This document shows, piece after piece, positions 55,259 to 58,417 of a stretch of 64,000 bases of DNA. The position numbers and the translations under genes are program-made. The notes beneath the pieces are model-generated. The model worked only from the letters and a program-made list of their open reading frames with translations. It had not been told where the DNA came from and did not search any database. The DNA is taken from the NCBI RefSeq assembly GCF_022846255.1, contig NZ_AP025682.1. One strand, given 5' to 3'. Within the stretch, counting starts at the first letter, position 1. Each line of letters begins with the position of its first letter. Source of the DNA: Escherichia coli (lineage in GTDB: Bacteria > Pseudomonadota > Gammaproteobacteria > Enterobacterales > Enterobacteriaceae).

Positions 55259-55278
55259 TAATTAGCTCAAGCAATCAA

Positions 55279-55308
55279 GCCCTGGTAACTGCCAGGGCTT
55301 TTTTATTT
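55279..55308 (+). terminator. rho-independent terminator of rne
   Basis: gccctggtaactgccagggc hairpin followed by ttttttattt. Confidence 0.8.
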
Positions 55309-55329
55309 CAGGGTAGCATCTTTGTTGTA

Positions 55330-55359
55330 ATGACATTAGCGTTACATGTGCTGTATAAT
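55330..55359 (+). promoter_or_regulatory. candidate sigma70 promoter of the toxin-antitoxin operon
   Basis: -35 ATGACA, 18-bp spacer, -10 TATAAT (55354-55359); the 8-bp palindrome ATAATTAT overlaps the -10 and could be an operator; AAGGA RBS before the ATG at 55391. Confidence 0.5.
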
Positions 55360-55390
55360 TATCATCCATGCAAAGCCGAAGGATATATTT

Positions 55391-55684
55391 ATGCCAGCAG
55401 CCAATAACATTCCAACCAGGCGCGAATCTTTAAATTTGCGCATAAAACCCGCAGAACGCGATCTTATTGACCGGGCCGCTAAAGCCCGAGGAAAAAATCG
55501 CACCGAATTTGTCCTTGAGGCCGCCAGAGCCGCTGCTGAAGAGGCGCTCATTGAGCAGAGAATTTTCAGGATCGATTCTGATGATTACCAGCTATTTTTG
55601 AATCGTCTGGATCAGCCCCCCGCGCCCAATGCTGCATTACGCAAAACCATGCAAACACCCGCGCCGTGGGAGCAAAAAAAATGA
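55391..55684 (+). CDS. type II antitoxin, DUF1778 / ribbon-helix-helix family (TacA/AtaR-like)
   Basis: 97 aa from the ATG at 55391; pattern [39 protein letters not shown] resembles DUF1778 antitoxins; stop overlaps the downstream ATG (ATGA). Confidence 0.8.
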
Positions 55685-56175
55685 TTCAGGCCCCCGAGCC
55701 ACTCATGGCAAGGCATCAATTCACCTCTTTTTGCTCGGGAGTAGAAACGATGGATAACTGGCTAAAGCAGAGGGCCCTAAAAAATCAGCTTGCCGGCGCA
55801 TCACGTACATTTGTTAGCTGTGATACGTATAGCAACGTTTTGGCATATTATTCGCTTGCTTCCAGCGCCGTTGAAACGTATGTCGCGACAGGACGATTTC
55901 GCCGAAATATGCCAGAACCGATCCCTGTTGTAGTACTTGGTCGTCTGGCAATAGATAAATCATTACAGGGTCAGGGCATCGGTCGTGCGATGGTCAGAGA
56001 TGCCGGTCTACGAGTACTACAGGCGGCTGAAGTCATTGGTATTCGCGGAATGTTGGTCCATGCGTTATCAGACCAGGCCCGAGAGTTTTATCTGCGAGTG
56101 GGGTTTGAACCATCGCCTGTCGATTCTATGATACTGATGGCAACATTGGCTGATTTGCAGGAATGTCTTAAATAG
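55681..56175 (+). CDS. GNAT-family acetyltransferase toxin (TacT/AtaT/ItaT-like)
   Basis: 164 aa from the ATG at 55681; GNAT acetyl-CoA motif [23 protein letters not shown]; strong resemblance to the TacT and AtaT sequences as I recall them. Confidence 0.8.
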
Positions 56176-56203
56176 TTCGTTATGTCTCATGCAAAATAAA
56201 TAT

Positions 56204-56227
56204 CCTCCGGCATAGCCGGAGGTTTTT
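56204..56227 (+). terminator. hairpin plus T-tract: TA-operon terminator and/or IS200 right-end subterminal hairpin
   Basis: cctccggc-ata-gccggagg followed by ttttt, 29 bp after the toxin stop; the assignment is ambiguous. Confidence 0.5.
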
Positions 56228-56303
56228 CAAATGCGCCTATAAGGCTCTCTTACCAGCCGCGCCCTAACAGGCGCACACGATCTGACATTTGCATCCAACT
56301 TCG

Positions 56304-56762
56304 TTACTTACGGCCCGTAAACGGGCTGCCCGGATAGGGAATCGATAACTGCTCTCCCATTTTATCCTCTTCAAGCTGGTGCTTTATGTAATCCTGTATC
56401 TTCGCCGTGTTCTTACCCACCGTATCGACGTAATACCCTCTGCACCAGAACTCCCTGTTCCTGTATTTGAATTTCAAATCACCAAACTGCTCGTAAAGCA
56501 TCAGACTGCTTTTCCCTTTCAGATATCCCATAAAGCCGGATACGCTCATTTTGGGCGGGATCTCCACAAGCATATGGATATGATCTGCACAGCATTCAGC
56601 TTCCAGAATCCGTACACTTTTCCACTCACACAGCTTTCTCAAAATACAGCCTATTGCTCTACGCTTCTCTCTGTAGAACACCTGTCTTCGGTATTTTGGC
56701 GCAAATACTATGTGATATTTACAGTTCCATCGGGTGTGCGCTAAGCTCTTTTCGTTCCCCAT
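56304..56762 (-). CDS. tnpA: IS200 transposase TnpA (HUH / Y1 single-strand transposase)
   Basis: ORF 56304-56813; start set at MGNEKSLAHTRWNCKYHIVFAPKYRR..., 152 aa; HUH motif (ADHIHMLV) and catalytic Tyr region; SD AAGGGGG. Confidence 0.9.
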   Translation of the reverse strand: MGNEKSLAHTRWNCKYHIVFAPKYRRQVFYREKRRAIGCILRKLCEWKSVRILEAECCADHIHMLVEIPPKMSVSGFMGYLKGKSSLMLYEQFGDLKFKYRNREFWCRGYYVDTVGKNTAKIQDYIKHQLEEDKMGEQLSIPYPGSPFTGRK

Positions 56763-56878
56763 TGGGACCCCCTTTTGATTTCTTGTTTGACACTTGCAGT
56801 TGCCAGACCGCAAGGTGTTTTAACAAATCAAAAGGGGTTTTAATAACTGGCTCAAAGCTGAAAGCTTTCCGGAACCCC

Positions 56879-56889
56879 CAGCCTAGCTG
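56879..56889. repeat. IS4 target-site duplication, left copy (CAGCCTAGCTG)
   Basis: Identical 11-mer immediately flanks both IS4 ends. Confidence 0.8.
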
Positions 56890-58314
56890 TAATGCCAGTC
56901 AGTTAAGCAACTGACTGGCTCTTTTTCGGGGCTGTGGGGTATTTCCAGGGCCTCTCCTTTACCACTCTCGGGAAGGCCCTTTCCCTTCTTGTCGGTAATT
57001 TCACAAGTTGTCCCATACTTGCAAGATCGCGCATCAGCTCCGGTATACGTCCCGGTGAAGCGCCCTGCAATGTCATCAGCATTCTCATCACCATTCCACA
57101 TGATTCTGAGAAACTCAGTTGATTCGGCCAGTAACCTTTCAGATGTTCCGCCATTTTAATCATCTGATATCTCACCAGATTATAAGCCAGTAAGACACCC
57201 CACAGCTCTTGCTCCACAAGCTCCGGTTTTTTACTTCTCAGCGTCAGCCTGCTCAGTTGCATCGTCTGTTTTATCTCCCTGTATCCCAGTTCGATTTCCC
57301 AGCGATGACTGTACAGATCCGCCATTTCTCCTCCGGGGAAGCGCATGGCGTCCGTCATCGACGTCAGCAGATGGCAGACTTTTCCTTTGCGCGTCACGGT
57401 CAGCAGGCGGGCTGTCACTTCATTTCCCAGTCCCGGCCACTTTTTTCGTGCCTGCGGGCTGGTTTTCAGCTTCACCAGATGATCGCCTTTACCCAGTTTT
57501 CTGATCTCTTCATATTGCGCTCCCTTTCTGAGAGGTATCATCCAGTGGCGGTGTTCTCCCGCCAGGCTCCAGGCATTTAACAGTCCCAGTGAGTAATAAC
57601 CTTTATCCATTAACGTCAGAGTGTTATCGCCGGTTTGTTCTATAAGTTGCTCAGCAAGCTCATTTTCGCTGTTCTTCATCGTGCCGAAGGCTGCAGCCGT
57701 CAGCAGATGGCTGGTCAGTTCCATCTGGCAGACCATTTTGACCTGCGGGTAGAGCGCCGGGTTCCCGGCATGTGTCTGGCGGGGGAAGGCTGCATCGTTC
57801 TCTGGTGTATCCGGTGTGCGCCAGAACACACCATCGATGGCCAGCAGGGTCAGGCCGCACCAGTGCGGATGCGGCGTGGCGTTATGCCAGAGCTGCGCTG
57901 TTTTCGTGAACACGCGGCGGACAGCCTCACTTCCCAGGCGCTGGCGGGCCTGAATAACGGCACTGGGGGCAACGAAGGGGCGATTGCCCGGCAGCATGAT
58001 GTCCAGGCGATTCACAATCTGGTGAAGAGGTTCTTTACGCTCAAGCGCCATGCCAACAATACACCAGACCATCATTTCGAGGGGAAGACGGCGCTTGCGT
58101 AGCGTTACAGTACCTGATTCGGCAAGGCAACGAGAGATGAGTTCGGGGTCGAGGTAATCCCCCAGAGAAGTCAGTGGGTTACGCAGAGAATCGTAACGGG
58201 ATACCAGATCAAGAGCCTGTCCAATGTGCATAAAAAAATCCGGAAACAAGTGAGCGTTTCCGGATTCTTACACAGCCACTGGATCGGTCAACTGATCCTT
58301 AACTGATCGGCATT
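56890..58314 (-). mobile_element. IS4 insertion sequence (complete)
   Basis: 1425 bp; 18-bp imperfect terminal inverted repeats TAATGCCAGTCAGTTAAG / TAATGCCGATCAGTTAAG (16/18); full transposase ORF; flanked by an 11-bp direct repeat. Confidence 0.9.
56903..58231 (-). CDS. insG: IS4 transposase (DDE)
   Basis: ORF 56903-58249; start set at [16 protein letters not shown]..., 442 aa, matching the IS4 InsG sequence as I recall it. Confidence 0.92.
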
Positions 58315-58325
58315 ACAGCCTAGCT
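58315..58325. repeat. IS4 target-site duplication, right copy (CAGCCTAGCTG)
   Basis: Identical to 56879-56889. Confidence 0.8.
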
Positions 58326-58341
58326 GGGGGTTTTCTGTGCA

Positions 58342-58373
58342 CAAAAATGCCCGCCCCGGCGATCCCGGAGCGG
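58342..58373 (-). terminator. rho-independent terminator of flgL
   Basis: gcccgctccgggatcgccggggcgggc hairpin followed by attttt on the minus strand, 45 bp past the flgL stop. Confidence 0.7.
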
Positions 58374-58417
58374 GCAGACAAAACATACCCAGTTTCATGA
58401 TATGTTTTAAAGCGAGC

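Follow-up and report, generated by a model that had tools for sequence, protein, structure and literature searches.

Stacked mobile DNA between rne and flgL of Escherichia coli: a TacAT2-like toxin-antitoxin cassette and an IS200 element interrupted by IS4

The Escherichia coli genes rne (52073–55258, plus strand) and flgL (58418–59371, minus strand) converge on an intergenic region, which we analyzed in a 64,000-nucleotide stretch of contig NZ_AP025682.1 (assembly GCF_022846255.1), here called the window. In the window this interval measures 3,159 bp (55259–58417). It is bounded by the stop codons of rne (55258) and flgL (58418) and encloses an 880-bp toxin-antitoxin cassette and a 2,148-bp block of insertion sequences (IS), in which an IS4 element is nested in an IS200 element. 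The interval is very probably the product of three separate mobile-DNA events, each of an ordinary kind, that were stacked within a single intergenic region. The observations described below establish its anatomy and the population frequencies of its states, and they show that the events were independent and that both target choices recur. All components are of known kinds and are annotated by standard pipelines, and the E. coli pair adds an uncharacterised member to a known family.

Four open reading frames (ORFs) of the interval gave family matches, encoding the antitoxin, the toxin, the IS200 transposase and the IS4 transposase (Table 1). The limits of the cassette were derived from a three-way alignment of the window with strain 144, which carries the pair only, and with O157:H7, in which the spacer is empty. 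The ends of IS200 were set by comparison of seven independent copies. A previous reading of the window from its letters (the original prediction) had described about 3.0 kb of non-core DNA, composed of a toxin-antitoxin pair, IS200 and IS4 lying side by side between two intact terminators. The amount was accurate (880 + 2,148 = 3,028 bp), and so was the list of contents; the side-by-side arrangement was not, as IS4 lies inside IS200. Both terminators fold as strong hairpins. The rne terminator is intact and has the same sequence in the empty and the pair-only haplotypes of the three-way alignment. The flgL terminator has kept its stem (minus strand, 58376–58348; tail TTTTTGTGCA in the terminator scan), but its T-tract was reduced from seven to five Ts by the insertion of IS200.

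Table 1. Features of the rne-flgL interval (positions of the window; a dot in the strand column marks features without orientation).
Feature	Position	Strand	Evidence and remarks
rne intrinsic terminator	55277–55306	+	Stem-loop 55277–55300 followed by T-run; terminator scan and RNA fold
Toxin-antitoxin cassette, 880 bp	55311–56190	+	Takes the place of the 63-bp spacer of empty E. coli genomes
Putative sigma-70-like promoter of the toxin-antitoxin operon	55330–55359	+	ATGACA, 18-nt spacer, TATAAT; 11 of 12 positions in consensus scan
tacA2-like ribbon-helix-helix antitoxin gene, 97 aa, DUF1778/TacA	55391–55684	+	PF08681, E 1.5e-26; PDB 7AK7 chain C, E 1.2e-45
tacT2-like GNAT acetyltransferase toxin gene, 164 aa	55681–56175	+	Pfam GNAT domains; PDB 7AK7 chain A, E 7.7e-76
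IS200 (IS200C type), 711 bp without IS4 and one duplication copy	56195–58342	-	Body 56195–56889, left-end stub 58316–58342
IS200 right-end hairpin	56204–56222	both, terminator-like	Terminator scan and fold; 29 bp past the toxin stop codon
IS200 tnpA, intact, 152-aa Y1/HUH transposase	56304–56762	-	NF033573, E 6.7e-43, above curated cutoff
IS200 tnpA 5' untranslated region (5'UTR), STnc490 (art200) region	56772–56895	-	RF01405 in Rfam, 120.5 bits (gathering score 56)
IS4 target duplication, copy 1, 11 bp, CAGCCTAGCTG	56879–56889	.	Direct repeat D15; equals IS200 nt 17–27
IS4, 1,426 bp, terminal inverted repeats	56890–58315	-	Inverted repeat I1; 99.65% identical to the K-12 IS4 copy
IS4 transposase gene insG, 442 aa	56903–58231	-	448 aa if the start is TTG at 58249; NF033592, E 8.7e-91
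IS4 target duplication, copy 2, 11 bp, CAGCCTAGCTG	58316–58326	.	Direct repeat scan
flgL 3'UTR, 75 nt, corresponds to FlgO	58343–58417	-	Two hairpins (fold); terminator stem 58348–58376

Population counts were obtained from a collection of 5,426 complete E. coli genomes. An intact empty spacer between rne and flgL was present in 4,713 genomes and the pair alone in 685 (12.6%), so that these two states make up 5,398 genomes (99.5%). As the search with the pair haplotype returned a single place per genome, none of the genomes carries an insert larger than about 1.2 kb. An insertion sequence was found in this interval in none of them. Likewise, the junction between toxin and IS200 was absent throughout, leaving the IS200 site unoccupied in every genome, and the full haplotype of the window (pair plus IS200::IS4) did not occur. 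The pair is thus an accessory module and, as anticipated, not universally conserved at this site. Whether the pair and IS200 had arrived jointly or independently had been regarded as not resolvable from one sequence. Hundreds of genomes with the pair and a clean, unoccupied IS200 site resolve this question in favor of independent arrivals.

The IS200 copy of the window shows the characters of the element, namely a Y1/HUH transposase of about 150 aa, a length close to the typical 707 bp (here 711 bp), subterminal hairpins, and neither terminal inverted repeats nor a target duplication. H61, H63 and Y125 are all present in the translated ORF, and Y125 has been named as the catalytic residue of the IS200 transposase (PMC4513863). 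Within the IS200/IS605 family, the copy resembles IS200C in its 711 bp, the 152-aa Y1/HUH transposase, the hairpin at nt 12–34 and the STnc490 5'UTR. It differs from IS200C by a 1,437-bp insert (IS4 plus duplication) in the left-end hairpin. This hairpin has been described as a terminator that works in both directions and protects tnpA against transcription from outside (PMC4513863). In the window, the intact left-end hairpin needed for IS200 mobility is lost, its apex being split by IS4, and the STnc490 match starts within the IS4 end, which replaces the first hairpin arm. With tnpA intact and the left-end hairpin split, this IS200 copy is probably immobile.

IS200 entered the flgL terminator without target duplication and divided its 7-T tract into five Ts beside the untouched stem (58343–58347) and two Ts on the far side of the element. 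Seven Ts follow the stem in all ten IS-free haplotypes that were checked, and the tract is conserved in E. coli, E. fergusonii, Salmonella enterica and Citrobacter koseri. The same kind of site was found wherever IS200 was read. Seven distinct sites were compared: the flgL terminator of the window, the wzzB terminator, a site downstream of hypT, the yfeX-yfeY interval, a pathogenicity island, a resistance plasmid and the inside of a phage tail gene. At all seven, the left end of IS200 lies directly 3' of a hairpin followed by three to seven T-rich bases, the final four flanking bases being TTTT, GTTT or TATT. Six of the seven hairpins exceed 99% of random 45-mers from the window in stability. 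In the IS200/IS605 mechanism, the transposase binds the subterminal hairpins, and a guide tetranucleotide picks the target tetranucleotide beside the left end (PMC6006769). By this rule, the T-tracts of terminators are natural IS200 targets. The seven sites suggest that IS200 homes to the 3' side of terminator-like hairpins. We found no paper in the literature stating that IS200 targets terminators.

IS4 was identified by its IS4-type DDE transposase, its terminal inverted repeats and an 11-bp duplication; duplications of 11–13 bp are usual for this element. Its target is the apex of the IS200 left-end terminator hairpin (nt 17–27 within nt 12–34). The element closely resembles the K-12 IS4 (insG), with which it shares the length of 1,426 bp, the terminal inverted repeats and the DDE transposase at 99.65% identity. 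IS4 targets follow an AAA-N20-TTT rule. The K-12 copy is flanked in this way and lies within a 12-bp duplication in unrelated DNA, whereas the sequence at the IS200 site, AA-N19-TT, resembles this pattern without matching it exactly. The same IS4-in-IS200 junction, identical in base position and orientation, was present in 219 genomes of the collection. Elsewhere it was located between hisIE and wzzB, downstream of hypT, in a pathogenicity island and on a plasmid. Ends of IS4 were present in 2,600 genomes, about one twelfth of which have a copy in the 11-bp IS200 spot. Strong target-arm specificity has been described in the IS4 subgroup, in a paper that makes no mention of IS200 (PMC2266710). 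Our search of the literature found no paper describing IS4 inside IS200 or IS4 targeting IS200.

The history of these composites can be followed at two other loci. IS200 without an IS4 insert was found at the hypT site in 216 genomes and at the wzzB site in 27, and the existence of such IS200-only occupants indicates that IS4 entered a resident IS200 at both places. Moreover, when the composite of the window was compared with those at hypT, the IS4 parts were identical and the IS200 parts differed by about 2%. Identical IS4 on IS200 backbones that far apart argues for separate hits and not for one ancestral composite. On balance we favor the joint interpretation that the apex of the IS200 left-end terminator hairpin is a sequence- and orientation-specific hotspot, in which IS4 recurrently lands and probably disables IS200, and that IS4-in-IS200 arose independently at no fewer than two loci with surviving IS200-only intermediates.

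Complete composites with both IS200 ends, 99.3–99.8% identical to that of the window, are found at several unrelated loci, and the collection contains no IS200-only intermediate at rne-flgL. Both observations would fit an arrival of the 2.15-kb IS200::IS4 block as one unit, by composite transposition or recombination, and the split hairpin arms could still pair in single-stranded DNA, extended by the 35-nt inverted repeat I1. However, the hairpin required by the IS200 transposase is separated by 1.4 kb, and the IS200-only state at hypT and wzzB together with identical IS4 copies in two composites of different backbone points to entry of IS4 into resident elements. Arrival as a unit was downgraded once the IS200-only occupants of the hypT and wzzB sites had been found, and we consider it unlikely. 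By analogy with these two sites, successive insertion at rne-flgL would have proceeded in the order IS200, then IS4.

The original prediction had explained the stack by a gap that tolerates serial insertions. Three elements are indeed stacked at rne-flgL in the window strain, and insertion between convergent terminators breaks no coding sequence. The content also varies across genera: the interval is empty, holds the toxin-antitoxin pair or, in S. bongori and a Citrobacter group, contains a divergent MFS transporter and LysR regulator (about 2.3 kb), which constitute a third content state. The interval therefore varies at the family level, but slowly, and to this extent the claim stands. It does not extend to a hotspot within E. 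coli, where almost all genomes are in one of two states with neither an IS nor a larger insert. The pan-genome comparison of insertion frequency found the interval unremarkable within E. coli, an outcome that had been named beforehand as speaking against a tolerant gap. Nor does the interval have the marks of an integration hotspot or genomic island, as two states account for 99.5% of the genomes and it lacks a tRNA, an integrase ORF and repeats flanking the cassette. Furthermore, IS4 sits inside IS200 and not in the DNA of the gap, and IS200 occupies its usual kind of site, which elsewhere includes the inside of a phage gene. Since IS200 lies in a terminator T-tract and IS4 in IS200, the placement of both elements is better explained by their own target preferences, and a convergent-terminator gap that serves as a neutral landing pad repeatedly accepting unrelated mobile DNA appears improbable.

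Comparison with related species gave information on the origin of the pair. The interval contains no gene in E. albertii, E. fergusonii, S. enterica and C. koseri, and in an alignment the E. albertii spacer is homologous to the empty spacer of E. coli along its length. Spacer homology and the gene-free interval of the other species indicate that the ancestral state was empty and that the pair was gained later. In a cryptic Escherichia clade (E4385) the pair occupies the same site, with a cassette 93.6% identical to that of the window and flanks at 86–94%. This flank-like divergence at a shared site is what an ancestral pair lost from most E. coli would predict, but such a history is very improbable, given that the empty E. 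coli spacer matches that of E. albertii full-length and thus bears no deletion scar, that E. fergusonii, S. enterica and C. koseri are empty as well, and that the cassette is less diverged within E. coli than its flanks, which fits later spread by recombination.

The latter value comes from strain 144, whose cassette is 99.5% identical to that of the window while the adjoining rne 3' half and flgL are 97.6–97.7% identical. This difference hints that recombination carried the cassette through E. coli at a time more recent than the divergence of the flanks. Public assemblies contain the exact toxin protein very often, and all eight genomic contexts displayed read rne, antitoxin, toxin, flgL. Homologous pairs of Salmonella and C. 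koseri are located at unrelated loci. A search of representative genomes with the toxin returned only relatives of at most 70% identity in unrelated Proteobacteria and no Escherichia or Salmonella loci.

The pair has the layout of type II GNAT/ribbon-helix-helix systems (TacAT/AtaRT): the antitoxin gene is located upstream in the same direction and overlaps the toxin gene by 4 bp (ATGA), the antitoxin domain is present, and the toxin has kept the catalytic Tyr and the surface Arg. RefSeq labels the antitoxin as 'TacA family antitoxin'. As judged from sequence, the closest system is Salmonella TacAT2, with about 75% identity. This assignment was derived from PDB entry 7AK7, whose chain A differs from P0062, a common Salmonella protein, only by Y137F and one M/I exchange. 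The catalytic Tyr is Y137 in TacT2, Y140 in TacT and Y143 in TacT3 (Rycroft et al. 2018), so that 7AK7 fits TacT2 with Y137F. An assignment of 7AK7 to TacAT3 was rejected, as TacT3 (6G96/7AK9) matches the window toxin only at E 2e-15. In the alignment to 7AK7 and P0062, the window toxin has both R88 and Y137; Y137F and R88G each abolish TacT2 toxicity (Rycroft et al. 2018).

The E. coli and Salmonella systems share the antitoxin-first two-gene layout, the overlapping genes, R88 and Y137, and 75–76% identity or thereabouts. They differ in location, as TacAT2 lies near dsbD/cutA or beside AraC- or GerE-type regulators in Salmonella and between rne and flgL in Escherichia. AtaT, a studied GNAT toxin of E. 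coli (PDB 6AJM/6GTP), is only distantly related to the window toxin (E about 1e-16). Neither protein of the pair matched the PADLOC defence library, and NCBIfam contains no model naming either of them. Our literature search yielded no experimental study of the E. coli copy. In vivo, Gly-tRNA is the almost exclusive target of TacT2 (PMC9177977). By homology, the GNAT toxin would stall translation by acetylating charged tRNA on its amino group, with Gly-tRNA as the main substrate in vivo for this clade, while the ribbon-helix-helix antitoxin would bind the toxin and repress the operon.

We propose that the interval was assembled in three steps. First, an old gain would have put the tacAT2-like type II cassette in place of the 63-bp spacer that ancestrally separated the terminators of rne and flgL, and the cassette would now be a lineage-restricted accessory module of Escherichia. 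Second, in a strain-specific event, IS200 would have inserted into the flgL terminator, where it parted T5 from T6 in the 7-T tract, entering by the single-strand 'peel and paste' mechanism without target duplication. Third, IS4 would have entered the left-end terminator hairpin of IS200 at its apex, duplicating 11 bp. The IS200 copy is most likely immobilised by this insertion, which splits the subterminal hairpin that the IS200 transposase must bind.

Several points weigh against this scheme. IS200 alone occurs at rne-flgL in none of the collected genomes, and the order of the two insertions at this locus is taken by analogy from the other sites. In principle, IS4 could also pass from one IS200 copy to another by gene conversion, without new transposition. 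The hairpin preference of IS200 was deduced from seven sites, which are a non-random sample. Furthermore, 28 of the 5,426 genomes are in neither of the two counted states, and both the toxicity of the E. coli toxin and its neutralisation by the antitoxin are read entirely from homology.

The insertion of IS200 also altered the 3' end of flgL. FlgO is a strongly Hfq-bound small RNA of about 75 nt, which is processed from the flgL 3'UTR (PMC10578931). The 75-nt flgL 3'UTR of the window resembles this sigma-28-dependent, Hfq-bound RNA in its two hairpins and in ending with the flgL terminator. It differs in its tail, which reads UUUUUGUGCAC in the window and UUUUUUUGCAUG in IS-free haplotypes. 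In the RNA, the poly-U tail would be UUUUUGUG where the IS-free form has UUUUUUUG, a reduction from seven to five Us. Hfq binding requires a poly-U tail, and IS200 might affect flgL termination or FlgO in this strain. Rfam contains no family for FlgO, and its assignment here follows position and published description only. The IS4 transposase gene now lies downstream of flgL in sense orientation. Any transcript running past the flgL terminator would continue into IS4 and read insG in sense; the hairpin of IS200 that would normally stop such transcription is split.

Further hairpins were noted around the transcription units of the interval. Within IS4 (58234–58269, minus strand), an inverted repeat followed by a T-run is located directly upstream of the insG start codon and resembles an inbuilt block against transcription reading into the element from outside. 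On the plus strand, the IS200 right-end hairpin (56204–56222) is followed by TTTTT, 29 bp after the toxin stop codon. This hairpin may now terminate the toxin-antitoxin transcript. In strains that carry only the pair, the sole hairpin near the toxin end is the flgL terminator read backwards, which has no T-run.

The window belongs to E. coli, and its best matches were complete genomes at 98.8–99.1% identity; the collection contained no genome near-identical to it. In line with the original prediction, the remainder is core DNA: positions 1–25000 and 25001–50000 were each collinear in one piece with 100% coverage, and genomes matching 1–50000 are annotated there with housekeeping genes only, from icd to yceF. 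The expected lack of other mobile or defence functions was likewise borne out, as the searches for tRNAs, defence genes (PADLOC), integrases (ORF list) and att-like repeats (repeat scan) were all empty: no tRNA between 50000 and 64000, no PADLOC hit for the pair, no integrase among the ORFs and no repeat pair bracketing the toxin-antitoxin cassette. A GC profile, which had been proposed as a check, turned out not to be diagnostic (pair 0.482, IS200 0.466, IS4 0.533, whole interval 0.502, window 0.515). The only Rfam matches at the gathering score were STnc490 and two expected core features, the RNase E 5'UTR element rne5 (51712–52048) and SraB (49683–49851, minus strand).

In several genomes that are otherwise collinear, the part matching window positions 1–25000 has some 11 kb of additional DNA. 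This DNA is absent from the window and is annotated, among others, with a DNA primase family protein. Judged by known prophage sites, it is presumably located near icd (1–1400). Collinearity across 1–25000 was found in 3,764 of the 5,426 genomes, which makes this region more variable in E. coli than the rne-flgL gap.

For genome annotation, the rne-flgL patch is a routine accessory region. About one eighth of E. coli genomes carry, always at this place, an uncharacterised chromosomal toxin of the TacAT2 type. The 11-bp spot in IS200 is a natural, well-defined target for studying IS4 site selection. If IS200 homes to terminators, this would explain why the element is usually harmless, and also how small RNAs made from 3'UTRs can have their poly-U tails clipped by it. 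Mobile DNA found in a 'stack' can mirror the target rules of each element and not a special property of the site.

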